From an uncultured Actinomycetota bacterium (GTDB lineage Bacteria; Actinomycetota; Thermoleophilia; RBG-16-64-13): DNA of 64,000 nucleotides. The DNA lies in contig OY969565.1 in the NCBI GenBank assembly GCA_963701105.1, forward strand, positions 1,101,086 to 1,165,085, read 5' to 3'. A model generated the notes under the pieces. The model made no database searches. It had not been told where the DNA came from and was given only the letters and a program-made list of their open reading frames with translations. Positions 24,625 to 48,354 of the stretch are shown here, piece by piece. Numbering within the stretch: position 1 is the first letter of the stretch; each line of letters opens with the position of its first letter. The translations under genes and the position numbers were made by a program.

Positions 24625-26106
24625 TTACCAACCCAATTTTATTTGAGCATAATATGAATATGTACCTACAAAATCATCATAAGCATATGCCCCGTCAAGC
24701 TGCAGAGCCCTGTAAATATTAAACCCTATACCGCCTGTAAATCTTTTGTCTGCCATTCCTGCTCTGAATGCGATCCCGAGCTTATCTTTTATAGCATCAA
24801 GCCTGTACTCAGTGCCAACTCTGAGACGTGAAAGGTAATCTTCATACCTGATATCTTTTTCAGAAATATCCGCCAAGTCAAATTCTACATCCCAGTTTTC
24901 TGTTATCGGATGAATTGCCCCGAAATTAATTATCATTGGAAGTTTAAGATCGAAGGGAATGCCGATATGATATGTTTGTGATACCGATTGAATCACAGTA
25001 TCTCCCTGAGCGTTTATGACTATATTTCCATTAGCATCTCTCTTATAATCCAGGTAGGTGTTAGCAAAATCTGTGGTTAATGTAGAAGTAATTTTTTTTA
25101 CGGGAATTATATTCTGGATAGATAAACCAATTTCTGTTCCTGTAGGAAACTTGTAAAGTCCTCCTAAATCAAGAGTAACACCTGTAGTGTATTGATTCAA
25201 ATCGCGTTTAAGAATATTCAGAATATCATTATACTGTTCAAGAAGAAGTTTCTTGGCTGAGAATCTCCTGTGAACAACTTTAATATTTGCTCCTATATTT
25301 AAATTCTTTGCTATATTAAATGAATAACCGGCAGCCCCAACAACATCAACGTAAGAAACTGAATATGCAAAAGGTAAAACATCCGTAAAATCGTTACTAT
25401 TAAATATTGGCTGAAGAATTCCCTGTAATGCAAGTATTGCGTTTTCAACTTGCTGCGGATTACTGAGATCATCAGGAATTGGAATACTTAACAATGCATC
25501 AATTATTGGACTTTGCTCAACTTCAAATGCTGATTGCCCTACTCCGTACAAAGTGAATCCGAAATTTCCAACCTGCACTGCAAGTGATGGAATAGTTCTT
25601 ATGCCATGCGTAGCCGGGTTTTCAGATGTACCTATTAATTGCTGAAACAGATCTCTCGGAAATTTTAATCCATCCTGAATTTTTTTAACTGCTGCGAGCT
25701 GCTGGTTAATATCCGTTGCGTTCTTAAAATCGGATATGCCATTCCACACCTCTTTGAGAGAAAGTGCATCCTTAAATTCCTGTAAATGATTATTCAGAAA
25801 ATTTGCCGCCTCATATGTTTTAGGCGGTAAACTTAAACTTACTGTAATTCCGTCAATTGAAAAACGGCTCCTGCTAAGCAACGCGGGATTGTAGAGCATA
25901 GCATTAATCTTTCTGCCATTTGCTACACCGGTCTTCCCCATTCCCACATATTTAACATCTTCCCTGTTTGTAGGGATAGGGAGAGAAATTGATTCCGTAG
26001 TTATTTGCTGATCGGGCAGCATAAGAACATTTGGATCAAGCGAATATTGTCCAAATACTACACTGCTAAAGAGTAAAAGATTCAAAAGAATTTTCAGGTG
26101 TTTCAT
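24625..26106 (-). CDS. Outer-membrane beta-barrel, TraF_2/FadL/PorV-like
   Basis: Signal peptide, N-terminal plug motif GMGKTGVA...NPALL, amphipathic beta strands and C-terminal YAQIKLGW. Confidence 0.7.
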   Translation of the reverse strand: MKHLKILLNLLLFSSVVFGQYSLDPNVLMLPDQQITTESISLPIPTNREDVKYVGMGKTGVANGRKINAMLYNPALLSRSRFSIDGITVSLSLPPKTYEAANFLNNHLQEFKDALSLKEVWNGISDFKNATDINQQLAAVKKIQDGLKFPRDLFQQLIGTSENPATHGIRTIPSLAVQVGNFGFTLYGVGQSAFEVEQSPIIDALLSIPIPDDLSNPQQVENAILALQGILQPIFNSNDFTDVLPFAYSVSYVDVVGAAGYSFNIAKNLNIGANIKVVHRRFSAKKLLLEQYNDILNILKRDLNQYTTGVTLDLGGLYKFPTGTEIGLSIQNIIPVKKITSTLTTDFANTYLDYKRDANGNIVINAQGDTVIQSVSQTYHIGIPFDLKLPMIINFGAIHPITENWDVEFDLADISEKDIRYEDYLSRLRVGTEYRLDAIKDKLGIAFRAGMADKRFTGGIGFNIYRALQLDGAYAYDDFVGTYSYYAQIKLGW

Positions 26107-26288
26107 ACTAGGATTCCTTAGATAGTTTTTCGGGTTAACCTAAATAGTACATGCGAAAAACGTTAAGATTATAGCTCAAACATATTGTTATGCTCTTTTT
26201 ATTTCAATTTTGATAATTCCCGGTCTTATTAATTATCGTAATTGAAAAACAGTACATTTGATAAATGTTTATATCCCCTTAAGCCCGG

Positions 26289-26304
26289 CGGCACGGATAT
26301 TGCT
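26289..26304 (+). promoter_or_regulatory. Sigma54 (RpoN) -24/-12 promoter of the metal-efflux operon
   Basis: CGGCACG-GATA-TTGCT versus consensus TGGCACG-N4-TTGCW; exact GG-N10-GC spacing; 36 nt before the ATG at 26341. Confidence 0.75.
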
Positions 26305-26340
26305 TTTGATGCAGCGATAATTTATGTTTGTCAATAATTG

Positions 26341-26769
26341 ATGAAAAGAAAAATCTTCATATTAACATTACTAAGTATTTTCTTCGTAGCTACTACGGGG
26401 TTACCTCTTGTAATTCATATATGCAGTATGAACGGAATGTCTCCCACCTCAACCTGCAAAATGCACAAAGAGATGAAGGAAGAGCATAGCTGCTGTAATA
26501 ATAAAGAAAATGAAAACCGTGTTAAAATTTCTTTAAATGATTTTAACGCATGCTGCCAGTTCAAAGTATTTAACAAAAATATTACAGATCAGTTTCTTTC
26601 ATCCGGCAACGATTTAAGCCTGATATCCAATGTTAAAATTATTAATGCCGGTATCTTCACTGATTATCAGTCACCGGATGTTACAGTACAATTTAATTAT
26701 ACAAGCAGTTCCCCCCCGCCTCTTTTAGATAACCATATTTATTTAGACAACTCAGTATTTCTTATTTAA
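26341..26769 (+). CDS. Cys/His-rich exported protein (HYC_CC_PP-type)
   Basis: Signal-like N-terminus, then HIC, C, CC, CC and C-terminal SSPPP; first gene after the sigma54 site. Confidence 0.7.
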   Translation: MKRKIFILTLLSIFFVATTGLPLVIHICSMNGMSPTSTCKMHKEMKEEHSCCNNKENENRVKISLNDFNACCQFKVFNKNITDQFLSSGNDLSLISNVKIINAGIFTDYQSPDVTVQFNYTSSSPPPLLDNHIYLDNSVFLI

Positions 26770-26773
26770 TACC

Positions 26774-26877
26774 CGTACAATTCTTTGTATGAAGGGATAT
26801 TTATATCTCTTCCAATCTGTTATTCCGTTGAATTAACAGTTTCCCGATCATTTAATTGATCAAAGTAAATTTGTACG
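26774..26877 (+). ncRNA. Candidate cis-regulatory four-way-junction RNA upstream of cusC
   Basis: Closing stem CGTACAA..CTTTG / CAAAG..TTGTACG encloses three hairpins and ends on the first G of the GAGG RBS. Folded by hand only. Confidence 0.35.
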
Positions 26878-26886
26878 AGGAATTAA

Positions 26887-28158
26887 ATGTGTAGAATTAA
26901 AAAAATATTATTTCTTATCTGTTTATTGCTTACACCGGGATTTATTTTCGGACAGTCGCTTGATTCGTTAATGAACCGCGCAATTGAAGTTAGTCCCAAA
27001 CTGAAAATGCTCCAGGCGAAGTCTGATGCGGCTGCAAGCAGAATTGATCAAAATTCAAATCTTCCGGATCCCACTTTAACATTAGGACTGGCAAACCTCC
27101 CTGTTAATTCATTTTCGTTTACGCAGGAACCAATGACAGGTAAAGTTATCGGGTTAAGCCAGGGTATTCCATTCCCCGGAAAACTTGGTGCTGTTGCGGA
27201 TGTTGCCGGGAAAGATGTTGATATAATTCAGCAGGAAATTATAGATGCAAGGAATGAAATAATAAAAGATGTGAAACAGAATTATTATGAACTGTGCTAC
27301 ACCAGGAAATCTATAACAATTGAGAATGAAAATCTGAAACTCCTTAAGGAGATTTCAAAAGTTGTAAAAACAAAATATGAAGTATCAACAGCAAGCCAGC
27401 AGAATCTATTAAAGGTTGAACTTGAACTGACAAACATTAGTGATAAAATTGAAGACCTTAAAAGTAAAGAAGAATCATTACAGGCAATTTTAAATGCTGA
27501 ACTCCTTCTTCCGGCTGATAATAAAATAACAACTAGTGAAATCGGCGAAATAAATTTTCAGAATTATTCTTCAGATGCACTCGATTCGCTCGCAGTTAAG
27601 CATCGCCCTTACTTAAAAGGATTTCATATCGCACAGGAAAAAGCTTTGATGCAGGAAAATCTTGCAAAGTACGACCGCTACCCGAACTTCAATCTTTCTG
27701 TTCAATATGCACAAAGAGATGATATTGCAAAAACAAACACACCTTTAACTGATTTTTTTTCGGTAATGATTGGAGTTACACTTCCGTTAAACTACGGTGG
27801 CAAAACAACTGCAAAAGTAGAAGAAGCTGAATCAATGCAGCAGATGTACAATCAACAATATTTACTTGCTCAGCAGGTTTTAAATCAGAATTTCGGTTCT
27901 TCTGCTGCGATCTTAAATTCTCTTTGTAAAAGAATTAAGCTGATAAAAGAAGGAGAATTTCCACAGGCTCAACAGGCATTTAATTCTGCTTTATCAAGTT
28001 ACCAGGTTGGTCAGATTGATTTCTTAAATGTAATTGAATCGCAGACAAAACTTTATACTGTTGAAACAAAACTCTACAGGTTGAAGACAGATTACTTAAA
28101 AGAAATTGCATCTCTCGAATTCCTTACAGGAACAGATTTGAATAAGAGTTTGAAATAG
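26887..28158 (+). CDS. cusC: TolC-family outer-membrane efflux protein (CusC-like)
   Basis: Motifs LPDPTL...MTG..IGLSQGIPFPGKL, RYPNFNL, GVTLPL and SYQVGQIDFLNVIES; upstream of cusBA. Confidence 0.85.
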   Translation: MCRIKKILFLICLLLTPGFIFGQSLDSLMNRAIEVSPKLKMLQAKSDAAASRIDQNSNLPDPTLTLGLANLPVNSFSFTQEPMTGKVIGLSQGIPFPGKLGAVADVAGKDVDIIQQEIIDARNEIIKDVKQNYYELCYTRKSITIENENLKLLKEISKVVKTKYEVSTASQQNLLKVELELTNISDKIEDLKSKEESLQAILNAELLLPADNKITTSEIGEINFQNYSSDALDSLAVKHRPYLKGFHIAQEKALMQENLAKYDRYPNFNLSVQYAQRDDIAKTNTPLTDFFSVMIGVTLPLNYGGKTTAKVEEAESMQQMYNQQYLLAQQVLNQNFGSSAAILNSLCKRIKLIKEGEFPQAQQAFNSALSSYQVGQIDFLNVIESQTKLYTVETKLYRLKTDYLKEIASLEFLTGTDLNKSLK

Positions 28159-28167
28159 GAGATTATA

Positions 28168-29859
28168 ATGAAAAAGAAATATTTAATAATAAGTTTAATA
28201 ATAATTGCAGTTGCTGCAGTCGGATTAATTTTAACTACACCTTTCAGTAGCAGTAATGAAGTAAAAACACAAAAGCAGTTATACACCTGCGGAATGCATC
28301 CACAAATAATTGAAGATCATCCCGGCGATTGCCCTATTTGCGGGATGAAGCTCGTTCCGGTTAAGAATAGTACCTCTGGAAATGTAAAATCCGGGGAGCG
28401 AAAAATACTTTACTGGCGTGCACCGATGGACCCAAACGAAATTTATGATCATCCCGGAAAATCTAAAATGGGAATGGATCTCGTTCCTGTTTATGAAGAT
28501 GAAGAAGGAAATTCAGGAATTGTAAAAATCGATCCTGCTGTTGTTCAGAATATGAATGTTAAACTTGCAACTGTTGAAGAGAAAAATCTTTCTTCGGTTG
28601 TAACTACAAACGGTGTTCTTAAGTCAAATGAAAAAACCGATTACATTGTCACGACTCGCGTGAGCGGCTGGATAGAAAAACTTTATGTTAATTACACAGG
28701 CGAAAAGGTTTCCAGAGGCGAAAAGCTAATGGATATTTATTCTCCTGAACTTGTTTCTGCCCAACAGGAGTTACTTACAGCTCTTTCCTATAATAATAGT
28801 GTAAGCCAGTCATCTATAAAAAATATTCTTGACAGCGGAAATGAATTGGTTAAAAATGCAATCCGCAAACTTCAGCTTTTGGAAGTTCCCGAAAAAGATA
28901 TTGAAAAACTGAAGGAGACAAAAGAAATAAAAACTTATGTAACTCTTTATGCACAAAACAGCGGAACAGTTATTTCCAAAAATGTTCTTGAAGGGCAAAA
29001 GATAATTGCGGGAATGCCGCTTATGCAGATATCTGATTTATCAAACCTGTGGCTGCTTGCCGATGTTTATGAATATGAGTTATCAAAAATCGATGTCGGT
29101 TCACCAGCAAAAATAAAATTTAATTATCTGCCGGGACAAACATTTAACGGTAAGGTTTCCTTTATTTATCCGACACTCGATCCAAAATCAAGAACAGTAA
29201 AAGTGCGTCTTGATATAAATAATTCAAACGAAAAATTAAAACCTGAAATGTTTGCCAATGTTGAAATAAGCGGAAAGGATTTTGGACTCACTCCGGTTAT
29301 ACCCGAAAATGCTGTTATCAGAAGCGGAACAAAAGATATCGTTATCCTATCACTAGGCGACGGCAAATTCAAACCTCAGACTGTAACTCTTGGCGGTTAC
29401 TCAAACGGATACTACCAGGTGCTTAAGGGACTTACTGCAGGATCAAAAATAGTTATCTCTGCACAGTTCTTAATTGATTCTGAAAGTAATCTTAAATCCG
29501 CAATCGGTATGATGCAGGATACTCCCCCGGATTCTTCAACTCCTGAAAAGCAGATGGATATGAAGAAAGATAAAGAAATTAAAAAACCGAAAGAAAAAAA
29601 TAAACCTAATTCCGAATCGGAAATAAAGCAGAACAAAAAAGTAGAAGCAACTACAGAAAATATTGTCCGTACGGGAGTAATTGATTTACAGGCAATCGAT
29701 AAAAATAATGATGGAAAACTTTTCCAGGATGAAATGGATTGGAATGTAATCTCAGATAAATTTGGTAAATGCACTCTATGCGGAATGACACTTACAGAAT
29801 TGCCGATTGAGCAGGTAAAGAAAAACCTGATCGAAAACGGATTTAAGGTCAAAGAATGA
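28168..29859 (+). CDS. cusB: CusB-like RND periplasmic adaptor with three heavy-metal-binding modules
   Basis: Motifs YTCGMHPQI...CPICGMKL, YWRAPMDP...KSKMGMDLVPVY, IYSPELVSAQQE, YPTLDPKSRTVKVR, AQFLIDSES and C-terminal CTLCGMTL. Confidence 0.92.
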   Translation: MKKKYLIISLIIIAVAAVGLILTTPFSSSNEVKTQKQLYTCGMHPQIIEDHPGDCPICGMKLVPVKNSTSGNVKSGERKILYWRAPMDPNEIYDHPGKSKMGMDLVPVYEDEEGNSGIVKIDPAVVQNMNVKLATVEEKNLSSVVTTNGVLKSNEKTDYIVTTRVSGWIEKLYVNYTGEKVSRGEKLMDIYSPELVSAQQELLTALSYNNSVSQSSIKNILDSGNELVKNAIRKLQLLEVPEKDIEKLKETKEIKTYVTLYAQNSGTVISKNVLEGQKIIAGMPLMQISDLSNLWLLADVYEYELSKIDVGSPAKIKFNYLPGQTFNGKVSFIYPTLDPKSRTVKVRLDINNSNEKLKPEMFANVEISGKDFGLTPVIPENAVIRSGTKDIVILSLGDGKFKPQTVTLGGYSNGYYQVLKGLTAGSKIVISAQFLIDSESNLKSAIGMMQDTPPDSSTPEKQMDMKKDKEIKKPKEKNKPNSESEIKQNKKVEATTENIVRTGVIDLQAIDKNNDGKLFQDEMDWNVISDKFGKCTLCGMTLTELPIEQVKKNLIENGFKVKE

Positions 29860-29872
29860 TTGAGAACAGTGG

Positions 29873-29933
29873 TGTCATTCTTAGCTTGACTCAGAATCTT
29901 TTTAAAAGACCCTGAACCAGGTTCAGGGAGACA
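29873..29933. mobile_element. MITE/REP-like double-hairpin element (TGTCAT...GACA family), copy 1
   Basis: TGTCATTCTTAGCTTGACTCAGAATCT-TTTTAAA-AGACCCTGAACCAGGTTCAGGGAGACA; perfect stem CCCTGAAC/GTTCAGGG. Confidence 0.65.
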
Positions 29934-29985
29934 AAATCAAAACTATCTTTTTAATGGAAAATGAATTTTTAATCAGGAGATTTAG

Positions 29986-32900
29986 ATGATATCCAGCGAT
30001 TCACAAAAAGAAGGATTGATTCAGAAACTCATTGAGTGGTCAATCAACAATAAATTTTTAGTAATACTTTTTACTGCCGCACTTATTCTCGGCGGAATTT
30101 GGGCAGTCCTTAACACTAAAGTAGACGCTATTCCGGATCTGAGCGATGTGCAGGTTATTATTTATACCGAATACCCCGGGCAGGGCCCGCAGATTGTGGA
30201 AGATCAGGTTACTTATCCTCTTACAACAAAAATGCTTTCAGTCCCTTATGCAAAGGATGTACGCGGTTATTCATTCTTCGGATTTTCGATGGTGTATATA
30301 ATATTTGAAGATGGTACGGATCTTTACTGGGCACGAAGCAGGGTCCTTGAATACCTGAACGGATTACGTTCTCAATTACCAGAAGGCATTAGTCCGCAGC
30401 TCGGTCCTGATGCCACAGGTCTCGGCTGGGTTTATCAATATGTACTTCAATCAGACAAGCGAAACCTGCAGGAGTTAAGATCTATACAGGATTATTTTCT
30501 AAAGTATGAGTTGTCTTCAATTCCGGGTGTTTCCGAAGTTGCAAGCGTTGGCGGATATGTAAAACAATACCAGGTAAATGTTGATCCTACAAAACTTGCT
30601 TACTATGGAATTCCACTTCAGAAAGTTAAAATGGCTATCCAGAGAAGCAATAATGATGTGGGGGGTCGGCTGCTGGAAATGGGTGAAGCAGAATATATGG
30701 TCCGCGGGCTGGGATATATAAAAAGTATAGATGATCTAAAGAAGGTTGCAATAGGTGTTTCATCTAATTCAGGTTCACCAATATACCTGGGTGATGTGGC
30801 AGATATAAATCTTGGACCGGAACTGAGACGTGGTTTAGCAGACTGGAATGGTGAAGGTGAAACCGTCGGCGGAATAATAATAATCCGTTACGGAGAAAAT
30901 GCCTTATCTGTTATTGAAAAAGTTAAGGAGCGTCTTGCCGAACTAAAAAAATCTTTACCTGCTGATGTTCAGATAAAAACCGCATACGACAGATCCAGTT
31001 TAATTGACCGTGCGATTAATAATCTTAAAGACAAGCTTTTTGAGGAAACCATTGTTGTTGCATTAATTATTATTCTTTTTCTACTTCATATCAGGAGTTC
31101 ACTCGTTGCAATATTCACTCTTCCCACTGCAGTGCTTGCTGCATTTCTTGTAATGAAAATGCAGGGAATAAATGCAAACATTATGTCTCTGGGTGGAATT
31201 GCAATTGCAATCGGTGCAATGGTTGATGCTTCAATTATCCTTGTTGAGAATGCACAGACGCATATGGTGCATAACCAGGAGAAACCTTTAAGTGAAAGAA
31301 TACCGCACTGGAAAGTAATACTGGAATCAGCTAAAGAAGTTGGTCCCTCAATATTTTATTCACTTCTAGTTATAACAGTTTCATTCATTCCTGTTTTCAC
31401 ACTTGAACAACAGGAAGGCAGAATGTTTAAACCTTTAGCGTTTACAAAAACATATTCAATGGCTGCTGCTGCAATATTAACTGTTACCATAGTTCCGATT
31501 CTTCTTGGATATTTTGTAAGGGGAAAGATGAAAAGAGAAGATGAAAACCCCATTACAAAGTTCCTGGCAAAACTGTATCATCCGGTCGTTGATTTCGTAA
31601 TGAACAAAAGATGGTGGGTAATGGGAGCAGCTGTTCTTATTGTACTGGTAACTTACTTCCCATTCTCTCAATTAGGTTCCGAGTTCATGCCTCCACTCGA
31701 TGAAGGTGATCTTCTTTATATGCCCACAACTCTTCCCGGTATTTCAATTACAAAAGCAAAAGAACTTCTTCAGCAGACAGATAAAATAATTAAATCATTC
31801 CCCGAAGTTGAATCAGTGTTTGGAAAAATAGGAAGAGCGGATACTCCTACTGATCCGGCACCGCTTTCAATGATTGAAACTACAATAAGATTAAAGCCGC
31901 ACGACCAGTGGCGATCAGGAATGACTACTGAAAAACTTATTGAAGAAATGAATAACGCAATCCAGATTCCAGGTTTAACAAATGCCTGGACGATGCCTAT
32001 CAAAACCAGGATAGATATGCTCTCAACGGGAATTAAAACTCCTGTAGGAATTAAAATTGCAGGACCCGATTTGAATGTTTTGCAAAACATAGGCAAACAA
32101 ATTGAAGAAGTTGCCAAAACAATTCCCGGGACACGCTCAGCTTACGCGGAAAGATCTGTGGGCGGAAATTATGTTGATTTCAATATTAACCGGGACGCTA
32201 TTGCACGTTACGGTTTAACCATTGGTGATGTACAGGATGTTTTTATGTCTGCTATCGGTGGAATGAATATAACAAAAACAGTAGAAGGACTTGAAAGATA
32301 TCCGGTTAATCTTCGTTACCAGAGAGATTACAGGGAAAATCTTGAAGCATTGAAGCGTGTTCTTGTTCCTACTCCTGCCGGCGGAAATATTCCGCTTGAA
32401 GAACTCGGATCGTTTGAAGTTAAAAAGGGTCCTCCGATGATCAAATCTGAAAATGCCCGACCAAATACCTGGGTTTATATTGATATACAAAACATCGATG
32501 TAGGAACTTATGTTGACAGGGCAAAAGAAATTATAAACAGCAAGGTAACTCTGCCTCCGGGCTATTCAATCAAATGGAGCGGACAGTTTGAATATATGGA
32601 AAGAGCATCGAAACATTTAATGCTTGTAATTCCATTAACTATCCTAATCGTAATAGTACTGCTTTATATGAATACAAAATCAATTCTGAAAACAGGAATT
32701 GTACTTCTCGCACTTCCCTTCTCAATGGTTGGGGCAATCTGGTACCTGTATATCGCGGGATTCCATTTAAGCGTCGCTGTTTGGGTTGGTGTTATTGCAC
32801 TTCTTGGTGTGGATGCAGAAACCGGAGTGGTTATGCTTCTTTATCTCGATATAGCTTATGAGAAATTCAGGAAAAAAGGTTTGCTTACAAGTATATCAAA

Positions 32901-33162
32901 TCTTAGAGAGGCAATATTTGATGGAGCGGTTAAGCGAGTCCGTCCGAAACTTATGACAGTACTAACAATGCTTTTCGGTCTTCTTCCGATTTTGATAGGA
33001 ATGGGAACCGGAAGTGATGTAATGAAAAGAATAGCTGCCCCGATGGTAGGCGGAATTCTAACAAGTTTAATTCTAGAACTCACTGTTTATCCGGCAATCT
33101 TTTTTTCAATTAAGAAAAGAGAAGTTAGTAAACAACTAAAAATTAACAATGAACAGTTATAA
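29986..33162 (+). CDS. cusA: CusA/SilA heavy-metal (Cu+/Ag+) RND efflux pump
   Basis: Motifs DAIPDLSDVQVI, LGPDATGLGWVYQY, NIMSLGGIAIAIGAMVDA, EFMPPLDEGDLLYMP, WTMPIKTRIDMLSTG, RVRPKLMT and RIAAPMVGG. Confidence 0.95.
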   Translation: MISSDSQKEGLIQKLIEWSINNKFLVILFTAALILGGIWAVLNTKVDAIPDLSDVQVIIYTEYPGQGPQIVEDQVTYPLTTKMLSVPYAKDVRGYSFFGFSMVYIIFEDGTDLYWARSRVLEYLNGLRSQLPEGISPQLGPDATGLGWVYQYVLQSDKRNLQELRSIQDYFLKYELSSIPGVSEVASVGGYVKQYQVNVDPTKLAYYGIPLQKVKMAIQRSNNDVGGRLLEMGEAEYMVRGLGYIKSIDDLKKVAIGVSSNSGSPIYLGDVADINLGPELRRGLADWNGEGETVGGIIIIRYGENALSVIEKVKERLAELKKSLPADVQIKTAYDRSSLIDRAINNLKDKLFEETIVVALIIILFLLHIRSSLVAIFTLPTAVLAAFLVMKMQGINANIMSLGGIAIAIGAMVDASIILVENAQTHMVHNQEKPLSERIPHWKVILESAKEVGPSIFYSLLVITVSFIPVFTLEQQEGRMFKPLAFTKTYSMAAAAILTVTIVPILLGYFVRGKMKREDENPITKFLAKLYHPVVDFVMNKRWWVMGAAVLIVLVTYFPFSQLGSEFMPPLDEGDLLYMPTTLPGISITKAKELLQQTDKIIKSFPEVESVFGKIGRADTPTDPAPLSMIETTIRLKPHDQWRSGMTTEKLIEEMNNAIQIPGLTNAWTMPIKTRIDMLSTGIKTPVGIKIAGPDLNVLQNIGKQIEEVAKTIPGTRSAYAERSVGGNYVDFNINRDAIARYGLTIGDVQDVFMSAIGGMNITKTVEGLERYPVNLRYQRDYRENLEALKRVLVPTPAGGNIPLEELGSFEVKKGPPMIKSENARPNTWVYIDIQNIDVGTYVDRAKEIINSKVTLPPGYSIKWSGQFEYMERASKHLMLVIPLTILIVIVLLYMNTKSILKTGIVLLALPFSMVGAIWYLYIAGFHLSVAVWVGVIALLGVDAETGVVMLLYLDIAYEKFRKKGLLTSISNLREAIFDGAVKRVRPKLMTVLTMLFGLLPILIGMGTGSDVMKRIAAPMVGGILTSLILELTVYPAIFFSIKKREVSKQLKINNEQL

Positions 33163-38586: not shown

Positions 38587-38787
38587 CTCTTCTTCCTTTA
38601 GGCATATAAACAAGCTGGTCAATTTCTTGTGATTTTTTCGCATCTTCTGTTTTTGAATTATCTACAAGCTGTTTTACTTTATCGGGAACCCCGACATTTA
38701 TTTTACTTTTTATATCATTAATTAGTTTAAACATAACAAGGGAAGATGATTTACTCAACAATTAATTTTTATTCGATCTTCTGATCC

Positions 38788-38811
38788 GTACCTCAGGACT
38801 CCTGTCCTGAG
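38788..38811 (+). repeat. REP-like hairpin, second copy
   Basis: GTAC-CTCAGGAC-TCCT-GTCCTGAG, same orientation as 33627-33650. Confidence 0.8.
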
Positions 38812-38832
38812 ATAAATAATTAAGTTGAAAAT

Positions 38833-38856
38833 AAAAAAGGGAGCCGCAGCTCCCTT
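38833..38856 (-). terminator. Intrinsic terminator of 38883..40892
   Basis: Minus strand GGGAGC-TGCG-GCTCCC followed by TTTTTT. Confidence 0.85.
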
Positions 38857-38882
38857 AATAATCACCAACAAAATTACCTGGA

Positions 38883-46337: not shown

Positions 46338-48203
46338 TTACCTGAGAAGGATCATCTTCTTGGTTTGTATAAAATCTCCTGCTCTTAGTTGATAGAAATA
46401 AACTCCGCTTGGTAAGTTGGCTGCGTTAAACTCTACTGAATAATTCCCCGCTGATTTATCTTCGTTAACTAAAGTCGTTACTTCTTCGCCCAACAGGTTA
46501 AAGAGTTTCAAACTAACTTTACTAATCTCAGCTATTGAATAATTTATTGTCGTACTCGGGTTAAATGGATTAGGATAGTTTTGTTCAAGTGCAAATTCAT
46601 TTGGTAAAGCTGTTTCTTCTTCAATGCCAACCACAATACCATCGAACTCATCTGCACCAATATCAGGAGTTATTGCATTACGCGTATCTCCATCAAAGTC
46701 CATATCTATTCCCGGGATTGGGGTGCCTCGTGATTCAATATATGTAGCGATTGTATCATCAATATGTAAAAATGGTTCAATGAAATGTGGCATTTCAATA
46801 TAACTTTGTAAATCGTTTGCAGTTGCCTGCCAATCTGCTAATGTGTTGTATCTAGTGCTTCCAATTCTTACTAATGTATTATTCTGGTTTGGCGCGTAAT
46901 ATAGAATGTTATTATCTGAAGTAAGGTTTGTAGCTGTGTGATCATAAATTGCTGACGCACAATAGGGAGAATCAACTCTTGTGTTTACTAAGATATTATT
47001 CTTTAATGTTACGTTTGAACAGGAATGATGTATGTAAAATGCAGCGGAACCCTGATGATTGGCCCCAGTACCTGAAAGATAAACTGAGTTATAGAAAATG
47101 TTCGGATTATTTTGCTGCCAGATTTGGATTCCGGCAACTCTACTGTCGGGCCAAGTCGATGTACTTTGAATATCGTATATCATATTATTATAAACCATAT
47201 TACCACTCCCTGTCTTACCAACATCACCGGATAATTGAATCCCTGTTGAATGAATCCCACTAAGAGATTTAAAATTATGGACTATATTGTTTCTAATTGT
47301 ATCACTGGCACCCCAATATGAGTTTATTCCCTTATTAACACCATCCCATGTATTATTGTTATAAAGTTTGAGATTTTTAACGATATTATTTTCAGCAACT
47401 GCATTTTGAGATTTTTCGATTTGAATTCCCCAGGCAATTAAGCTGTCGGTCTCAGAACCAACTTTATTCCCTCTGATAACATTGCCTATATGTTTTGTAT
47501 TTGCATTTGCCCAAGAAGCTGTAACAACTATTGCGGCCCCTGCTTTTTTAATAAAATTGTTTTGAATGAGATTACTATCAGGTGCGAAAGGAGAATTAAC
47601 TGAGCACACCAAAAAGATTCCTATCCCTGTCCTGGATATATCCTCACAGATAACGATTACGTTTTGAATAATGTTGTGATCCGCATCATTAGAAAATACA
47701 ATCCCATTGTTTTCAACATATTGTTGGTTGAAAACAGAGTGGACAGTAAGCGTAGTTGTACCTTCATAGCTCACGCCATCCAATGTCAAATAGCTTATAT
47801 CATTAAATGTCAATACAAAACTCCAATTACCCTCAATTGTGACATTTGTATTTGCCGCAGGTTTTATTATAACCCTGCTATTTGGTCCAGCCCCTGATAT
47901 TGGTCCATTTAACAAAAATCCAAAAGTATCAGGAGGTGCTATGTATAGATCATCTATTAATTCAAGTGTAACCTCCCCGGCAATACCGTCAATACTGAGT
48001 TTGTTAAATGCAGAATCAATTGTTGGAAAATCGCCTCCAGTGCCAACAGAATAAGTACCGGCAGGTAGAGGATCGAGTACTAGCTTTTGAAATTTTTCAG
48101 GAATTGTAAAATCATAACCTCTTCTTATTGAACCAAGTTCCTGTGAAAAACATATTTGCGATAGCAGCAAAAGGAAAAACAAGGTTTGTAAAATAGTTTT
48201 CAT
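46338..48203 (-). CDS. Secreted right-handed beta-helix protein with T9SS C-terminal domain
   Basis: Signal peptide ending CFS|Q; GTYSVGTGGDFPTI; repeated NNII/NNIV/NNMI beta-helix rungs; DFDGDTRN..TPDIGADEF; EQNYPNPFNP tail. Confidence 0.8.
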   Translation of the reverse strand: MKTILQTLFFLLLLSQICFSQELGSIRRGYDFTIPEKFQKLVLDPLPAGTYSVGTGGDFPTIDSAFNKLSIDGIAGEVTLELIDDLYIAPPDTFGFLLNGPISGAGPNSRVIIKPAANTNVTIEGNWSFVLTFNDISYLTLDGVSYEGTTTLTVHSVFNQQYVENNGIVFSNDADHNIIQNVIVICEDISRTGIGIFLVCSVNSPFAPDSNLIQNNFIKKAGAAIVVTASWANANTKHIGNVIRGNKVGSETDSLIAWGIQIEKSQNAVAENNIVKNLKLYNNNTWDGVNKGINSYWGASDTIRNNIVHNFKSLSGIHSTGIQLSGDVGKTGSGNMVYNNMIYDIQSTSTWPDSRVAGIQIWQQNNPNIFYNSVYLSGTGANHQGSAAFYIHHSCSNVTLKNNILVNTRVDSPYCASAIYDHTATNLTSDNNILYYAPNQNNTLVRIGSTRYNTLADWQATANDLQSYIEMPHFIEPFLHIDDTIATYIESRGTPIPGIDMDFDGDTRNAITPDIGADEFDGIVVGIEEETALPNEFALEQNYPNPFNPSTTINYSIAEISKVSLKLFNLLGEEVTTLVNEDKSAGNYSVEFNAANLPSGVYFYQLRAGDFIQTKKMILLR

Positions 48204-48227
48204 TAATCCTCCTAAATATTTTAATTC

Positions 48228-48252
48228 GAGCGAGTCATCGACTCGCTCCTAC
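48228..48252 (-). repeat. GTAG-REP-like hairpin
   Basis: Minus strand GTAG-GAGCGAGTC-GAT-GACTCGCTC. Confidence 0.75.
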
Positions 48253-48260
48253 TTTTTTAT

Positions 48261-48349
48261 TGTCATCCCGAATCTACCTTTCGGCAGACAGGTTCATTTC
48301 TGGATCTACCGATAAATAGTCAAAATTCTGAAACAAGTTCAGAATGACA
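48261..48349. mobile_element. MITE/REP-like element copy 2 with an internal GGCAG-type insert
   Basis: TGTCATCCCGAA[TCTACCTTTCGGCAGACAGG]TTCATTTCTGGATCT...ATTCTGAAACAAGTTCAGAATGACA. Confidence 0.65.
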
Positions 48350-48354
48350 ATAAA

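Follow-up and report, generated by a model that had tools for sequence, protein, structure and literature searches.

Within the window (the whole 64,000-nt stretch of DNA that was analysed), a small ORF and tolC, the first gene of a heavy-metal RND efflux pump, lie on the same strand and are followed by genes for a CusB-like adaptor and a CusA/CzcA permease (Table 1). The operon is of the copper/silver type. The product of the small ORF is a membrane-anchored, Cys-rich protein of the HYC_CC_PP type with 142 residues counted from the ATG, or 143 from an alternative TTG start that is possible at 26338. It scores 20.9 bits against NF047658 (HYC_CC_PP), which is under the 28-bit cut-off; the orthologues that exceed the cut-off are those of loci L055 (32.4 bits), L037 (31.4 bits) and L010 (28.3 bits). 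Features common to these small proteins are an N-terminal helix, H-x-C, CC, CC and SPP motifs, and a C-terminal tail, ..NSxLLI*, that is kept in 68 loci. A search of 300 genomes of the phylum with NF047658 gave no matches, and the controls likewise gave none.

Table 1. Features of the small ORF-tolC-cusBA locus and of its first intercistronic spacer (window coordinates)
Feature	Coordinates	Strand	Description	Basis
sigma54-type -24/-12 element	26290..26303	+	GGCACGGATATTGC; probable operon promoter, upstream of small ORF	sequence
Small ORF, HYC_CC_PP type	26341..26769	+	membrane-anchored, Cys-rich; stop codon TAA 26767-26769	
P1, 5' arm	26767..26780	+	stop codon UAAU, CC (26772-26773), CGUACAA (26774-26780)	MFE and centroid folds
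U-rich tract	26779..26790	+	AAUUCUUUGUAU; second anti-SD-like sequence, alternative partner of GUACGAGGAAUU (26873-26884)	
P2 hairpin	26791..26812	+	GAAGGGAUA-UUUA-UAUCUCUUC, 9 bp, one G.U	fold; 2 pairs with double changes in the near clade
P3 hairpin	26817..26839	+	CUGUUAUUC-CGUU-GAA(U)UAACAG	fold; 3 pairs with double changes
P4 hairpin	26846..26861	+	GAUCA-UUUAAU-UGAUC	fold; 3 pairs with double changes
P1, 3' arm	26871..26885	+	UUGUACG (26871-26877), A26878 bulged, GG (26879-26880), AUUA; includes Shine-Dalgarno GAGGAA 26877-26882	folds
tolC (OEP-family outer-membrane factor)	26887..28158	+	first pump gene	Pfam OEP, 4.6e-44
CusB-like adaptor	28168-29859	+		HlyD_D23 and two HMBD domains (Pfam)
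CusA/CzcA RND permease	29986-33162	+		Pfam ACR_tran; TIGR00914 CusA/CzcA, 1224 bits

The sigma54-type element stands about 35-45 nt ahead of the small ORF. Of 63 orthologous loci, 23 have an equivalent element equally far from the small ORF (about -474 relative to its stop codon); among them are all of the near-clade loci except L052, which gave no match and where the upstream sequence is perhaps missing. None was found within the spacers of the 63 loci, and a promoter scan of the window spacer found no good sigma70-like site. Terminator-like sites were not found between 26000 and 27200; the spacer lacks the GC-rich hairpin and U run of an intrinsic terminator, and in its relatives P4 is followed by an A run. 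Since the conserved sigma54 promoter precedes the small ORF and the spacer has none, we infer co-transcription: the spacer probably sits inside a polycistronic mRNA that reads, from the sigma54 promoter, small HYC_CC_PP ORF, spacer, tolC, cusB and cusA. The co-variation of the P1 arms (below) also implies a transcript that spans the spacer.

The next long gap in the operon, the 126-nt cusB-cusA spacer (29860-29985), is no more structured than its shuffles (z -0.33) and forms a single long local hairpin at about 29873-29933.

A four-way junction between stop codon and start codon

The gap between the small-ORF stop codon and the tolC ATG is 117 nt (26770-26886). A sequence-only reading had folded this gap by hand into four helices. 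The minimum free energy (MFE) fold of 26774-26877, computed with ViennaRNA, is the same four-way junction, with all four helices where they had been placed and an energy of -25.7 kcal/mol. Dinucleotide shuffles average -13.3 +/- 2.8 kcal/mol (z -4.48) and none of 200 is as good, so the hand fold also survives the comparison with shuffled sequence that its author had proposed; z is -3.87 when flanks are included, and the reverse strand folds too (z -3.36). The length of the gap had been given correctly, as had the end of P1 at G26877, the first G of GAGG and 10 nt before the ATG at 26887. Two details of the hand fold need correction. The outer helix of P1 stands, but the internal loop on its 3' side is TAAAT, 5 nt between CAAAG and TTGTACG, rather than AA. 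P4 and the inner extension of P1 are likewise present, but C26861 had been assigned to both; the computed fold gives the inner extension 4 bp (CUUU/AAAG), with 26783-26786 paired to 26862-26865. The structural claim itself, a conserved and non-chance four-way junction at the tolC ribosome-binding site (RBS), is confirmed.

The 5' arm of P1 begins 3 nt past the small-ORF stop codon, and the helix can be extended outward into the Shine-Dalgarno (SD) sequence, where C26772-C26773 pair with G26879-G26880 and A26878 is bulged. When the fold runs from the stop codon to the ATG, the stop codon itself (UAAU) pairs with the AUUA just 5' of the AUG. The 3' end of 16S rRNA (GATCACCTCCTT) is present in the genome, and the spacer holds a second anti-SD-like sequence, the U-rich tract. 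Its pairing with 26873-26884 gives an alternative outer helix, which is the MFE structure when 26770-26889 is folded without the stop codon and which, by eye, is partly kept in L007. The overall probability that the SD is paired is 0.78, entirely with the first 35 nt of the spacer.

Crude gene calls delimit 121 same-strand spacers of 90-160 nt in this genome, and by z-score the window spacer ranks fourth among them. It alone combines z <= -3.5 with a probability above 0.7 for pairing between the RBS and the first 35 nt. The energy of the end-to-end duplex alone does not discriminate the window spacer from the genome's other spacers, and the partner-specific probability does. Among the most structured spacers of the genome in this crude survey are two others of the window, both on the minus strand, at about 38735-38882 (z -6.4) and about 48203-48354 (z -5.5).

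An ORF of 15 codons (MKGYLYLFQSVIPLN and a stop codon) at 26789-26836 overlaps P2 and P3. It has no SD, is missing in L007, L009, L011 and L020, and is probably meaningless; a leader peptide was rejected on this lack of conservation.

Conservation within the near clade and across the family

TolC-based searches yielded 17 genome loci and 80 metagenome loci. Eight orthologous spacers from related Ignavibacteria-type genomes (L006-L011, L052 and L020) make up the near clade together with that of the window; their TolC proteins are 64-83% identical to the window's over the matched segment. Each of these spacers folds independently into a closing helix and three hairpins. Even L020, whose TolC is 64% identical and whose spacer interior is only about 55% identical to that of the window, retains the four helices. 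The nine spacers, window included, were aligned with MAFFT together with a common structure. In this alignment 86.7% of cells are paired, versus 33-47% with slid partners. Co-variation among orthologous spacers, another of the checks proposed with the hand fold, is present: compensatory double changes occur in 10 of 34 pairs, and none of 500 shuffles reaches the observed values. In P1 a G-C pair is replaced by U-A (CGUACAA/UUGUACG in the window, CUUACAA/UUGUAAG in a variant), accompanied by G.U pairs, and departures in this helix include A.C as well as G.U. A double change in P4 is illustrated by GAUCAG/CUGAUC versus UAUCAG/CUGAUA in L008.

Sequence conservation is concentrated at the ends of the spacer, where 25 of 40 columns are invariant. 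In the interior, 17 of 46 paired columns but only 7 of 50 unpaired columns are invariant, and no invariant stretch in the interior is longer than 2 columns. The relatives have almost no junction left, since their U-rich J1/2 and A-rich J4/1 merely lengthen P1. A covariance model of the four-way junction finds strong matches only in its 9 seeds and scores the orthologous spacers of other clades at E values of 0.09-8; the four-way architecture is thus confined to one clade and does not define a broad family.

What the wider family shares is the arrangement small ORF-spacer-tolC and the closing of the spacer's two ends. The arrangement is found in 68 loci with 63 distinct spacers of 93-195 nt (median 119 nt); TolC identity to the window falls to about 42% across these loci, and the spacer sequences diverge in parallel. 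A closing helix is predicted with p >= 0.5 in 45 of the 63 spacers. Its 5' arm starts at a median of 3 nt past the stop codon (within +10 in 89% of the 45), and its 3' arm ends at a median of 6 nt before the ATG, covering the tolC SD. The arms come in at least 15 unrelated kinds of sequence. The number of inner branches varies as well: 2 in 27 spacers, 3 in 17, 4 in 2 and 5 in 1. The 18 spacers without a confident closing helix belong mostly to the most distant clade, where the contacts are 4-bp CCUC/GAGG pairings. The longest spacer, of 195 nt (L053:633-827), owes its length to an additional, very stable long hairpin (about 80 nt) that is inserted 3' of the first hairpin and ahead of the 3' arm; its closing helix is retained. 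In five other loci (L032, L049, L050, L065 and L068), tolC occurs without the small ORF and is preceded, across a gap of 274-476 nt, by an ORF of about 310-400 codons ending in ..LYSKIE.Y...

The partnership between the two ends is specific to each spacer. In the native spacers the end-to-end duplex has a mean energy of -8.95 kcal/mol. Exchanging 3' ends between loci weakens it to -7.15 +/- 0.27 kcal/mol, and none of 20000 permutations reaches the native value; when the set is reduced to 26 dissimilar representatives, 11 of 20000 permutations do so. Likewise, the mean probability that the SD pairs with the first 35 nt is 0.61 in the family, versus 0.26 when the upstream part is shuffled and 0.18 in the 121 control spacers of the same genome. 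The degree of masking is another matter: the total probability that the SD is paired has a family mean of 0.76, not higher than the 0.73 of shuffled sequence, and the cost of opening the RBS (7.5 kcal/mol) is not above that in control spacers (9.5 kcal/mol). Since the partner of the SD is special and the degree of masking is not, selection seems to act on that partner and on closure of the ends. Across the family, neither strand is favored by folding energy, so the assignment to the sense strand rests on gene orientation.

Its own genome and the genomes of 7 relatives each contain one copy of the spacer element, which in all loci lies between a HYC_CC_PP-type small ORF and tolC. No match was found by a DNA search of 60 relatives or by a covariance-model search of 400 genomes of the class. 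A TolC search in 40 relatives found no orthologue, and therefore the operon is patchy even within the genus; five genomes of the same genus (G001-G005) yielded neither a TolC orthologue at E <= 1e-40 nor a match to the spacer. TolC copies that are 73-83% identical occur in other Ignavibacteria/'Bacteroidetes' MAGs, and the metal island looks patchily distributed, perhaps through horizontal transfer. Together, the structural and comparative work identifies a conserved, uncatalogued intercistronic RNA structure that is specific to the HYC_CC_PP-tolC junctions of HME-RND operons in Ignavibacteria-type genomes.

Proposed translational linkage and competing explanations

The reading that we favor, at a probability of about 0.45, is that the structure couples translation of tolC to that of the small ORF or masks the tolC RBS. 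The conserved core in this model would be the closing helix, formed between the 10-15 nt right after the small-ORF stop codon (an anti-SD-like CC/pyrimidine tract) and the tolC SD region, while the 2-5 inner hairpins (three in the window clade, giving the four-way junction) would bridge the roughly 117 nt and keep the two ends in contact. On reaching the end of the small ORF, a ribosome would cover or unwind the 5' arm, which starts 3 nt after the stop codon, and so free the tolC SD. Because the helix sets the stop and start codons side by side, the ribosome or its 30S subunit might also be handed over directly to the tolC start. In either case, translation of tolC, and hence assembly of the pump, would be tied to translation of the small ORF. 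Both the masking and the reliance of tolC on small-ORF translation are inferred.

Simulation of a ribosome on the stop codon, with the stop codon and the 11 nt after it constrained to be single-stranded, agrees with such a model. Across the 63 spacers the cost of opening the RBS falls by a mean of 2.4 and a median of 1.8 kcal/mol, versus a gain of 0.15 kcal/mol in 120 control spacers (Mann-Whitney p = 2e-7). Thus, to judge from this gain and from the position of the 5' arm at +3, the masking strand lies within reach of small-ORF ribosomes; the downstream RBS is engaged in secondary structure, though not above shuffles. The window copy gains just 1.0 kcal/mol, because its U-rich tract can re-pair with the SD.

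Apparent selection on the SD's partner and on end closure, rather than on hiding of the SD, leaves room for a proximity or hand-over mechanism. An extreme version, quite unlikely in our estimation and drawn by analogy, is a bacterial 'shunt': the 117 nt would be folded away, and a terminating 70S or 30S would cross the base of the closing helix and re-initiate at tolC without release. Such crossing, if it occurs, would explain why the end-to-end partnership is selected while the degree of SD masking is not. In the 35S RNA of cauliflower mosaic virus, a large structure is closely flanked on both sides: a few nucleotides separate its base from the end of the preceding ORF, and a few separate its 3' side from the next start codon. 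The window spacer has the same geometry, and the resemblance is geometric only. The viral shunt belongs to eukaryotic scanning and makes use of a very short ORF, and to our knowledge nothing comparable has been shown in bacteria.

Among known bacterial systems, the closest in logic is coupling by RNA unfolding, a model that has been reviewed together with examples such as Escherichia coli rpmI-rplT (L35-L20, at a spacing of +52 nt) and the coat-lysis/replicase genes of phage MS2 (PMC12548453). As in those cases, the downstream RBS is paired to a stretch occupied by ribosomes of the upstream ORF, and the distance from stop to start is too long for simple re-initiation of the overlap type. The differences are that the strand complementary to the RBS is found immediately 3' of the stop codon rather than within the upstream coding region, that a multi-branched fold spanning about 117 nt joins the two strands, and that masking in silico is not above chance. 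Coupling usually declines with the distance between stop and start, and a structure right after the stop codon can inhibit it (PMC12548453).

A multi-hairpin fold behind a stop codon could also serve to separate the two cistrons, either by blocking read-on and re-initiation in the manner of a 'ribosome termination structure' or by acting as a nuclease barrier or processing site that gives the small-ORF and pump segments different half-lives. The stable structure does begin 3 nt after the stop codon, as in the conserved, stable structures that lie precisely downstream of operon stop codons and lower re-initiation (Chemla et al., bioRxiv 10.1101/2020.02.10.941153), and since the RBS is masked no more than by chance, masking may not be its purpose. 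However, those termination structures are defined by local stability and insulate, and neither an insulator nor a decay barrier needs a 3' strand that is the downstream SD. Here the co-varying partner of the stop-proximal strand is the SD of the next gene, which suggests linkage, not insulation. The hairpins are, moreover, AT-rich and individually weak, no second such element occurs at the cusB-cusA gap, and P1 is too short and too interrupted for RNase III. We consider this explanation doubtful. The sequence-only reading had allowed for a new element that was either metal-responsive or concerned with mRNA processing or stability; a new mRNA element is indeed possible and is backed by the co-variation, and its processing/stability alternative comes closer than a riboswitch, yet the pairing of the stop-proximal arm with the SD points to translation. 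As for a ligand-sensing riboswitch, in which a metal ion or other effector bound at the junction would stabilize or open P1 and so set access to the tolC SD, its appeal is the classic translational layout (a multi-helix junction with P1 over the SD) in a metal-efflux operon, together with the alternative SD-pairing helix of the window copy and the recurrent sequence signature of P2. The NiCo (czcD) riboswitch (RF02683), to which the hand fold had been likened, is also a four-way junction upstream of a metal exporter gene, and that part of the likeness holds. Beyond it the comparison fails: a cmscan of 26000-27500 gives no Rfam match in the spacer, NiCo included, even at E <= 10, and 14 related loci give none at gathering score. 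A ligand pocket should be the best-conserved part of the fold, and the unpaired interior columns are the least conserved; in the relatives J1/2 and J4/1 extend P1, so that no pocket-like junction is left, and both helix number and spacer length vary. The element also follows a translated ORF rather than forming a 5' leader, it has no terminator platform, and, with P1 as part of the aptamer, a ligand would turn the exporter off, which is the wrong logic. A riboswitch is therefore distinctly unlikely, and a false lead is removed for this spacer.

Explanations at the level of DNA fare worse. The hairpins might be palindromic operators (with the P2 dyad GAAGGGATAT..ATATCTCTTC, for instance, serving as the site of a regulator) or an internal promoter driving tolC-cusBA. 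In favor of this, the two strands fold about equally well, the P2 dyad is partly conserved in sequence, and TAAATTTG at 26866-26873 fits the -7 box of Bacteroidetes promoters, whose consensus is TAnnTTTG. This match is missing in L006, L007 and L020, though, and the spacer holds no sigma54 or sigma70-like promoter; P3 and P4, unlike protein operators, alter their sequence and keep their pairing. Above all, P1 arms that lie 90-130 nt apart co-vary with many different sequences, which is explained only by base pairing in a transcript that spans the spacer. A DNA-level role is very unlikely. Sigma54 and -7 box promoters in the spacer were rejected as absent or not conserved, and an ECF-sigma promoter (GGAAT-N14-CGTC), seen in some clades, was rejected on its spacing, which is too short, and its absence from the window clade. 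The arms of P1 also bracket the entire spacer like terminal inverted repeats, and bacterial MITEs of the Correia/NEMIS-like kind at start codons similarly fill a stop-to-start gap with an inverted-repeat-closed element of about 110-160 nt that carries the SD. A resident or domesticated element of this sort is scarcely credible here and was rejected: the spacer is single-copy, operon-specific and vertically conserved, hence not mobile. The searches of the 60 relatives and of the 400 class genomes found no further copy, and the same gene junction is occupied in all 68 loci, with spacers that diverge alongside TolC.

The structure adds an uncatalogued, covariation-supported RNA element to the heavy-metal RND efflux operons of Ignavibacteria-type bacteria. 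If translational coupling between the small ORF and tolC is true, the uncharacterized HYC_CC_PP small proteins would be linked to the pump at the level of translation, a hint at a stoichiometric or obligatory partnership of the small protein with the efflux complex. The spacer would also provide a natural test case for whether RNA structure can stretch coupling far beyond the usual spacers of a few nucleotides, a question that current reviews leave unresolved.

One feature falls outside what the coupling model explains. A first hairpin at +25 to +45 is general in the family, and in 27 of 63 spacers, from several clades, it carries the signature GGGAUAA(N)U(NN)RUCY. This signature recurs (at 26791-26812 in the window, and in loci from L012 to L098) while the other helices vary freely; it could be a protein-binding or ribosome-contact site.
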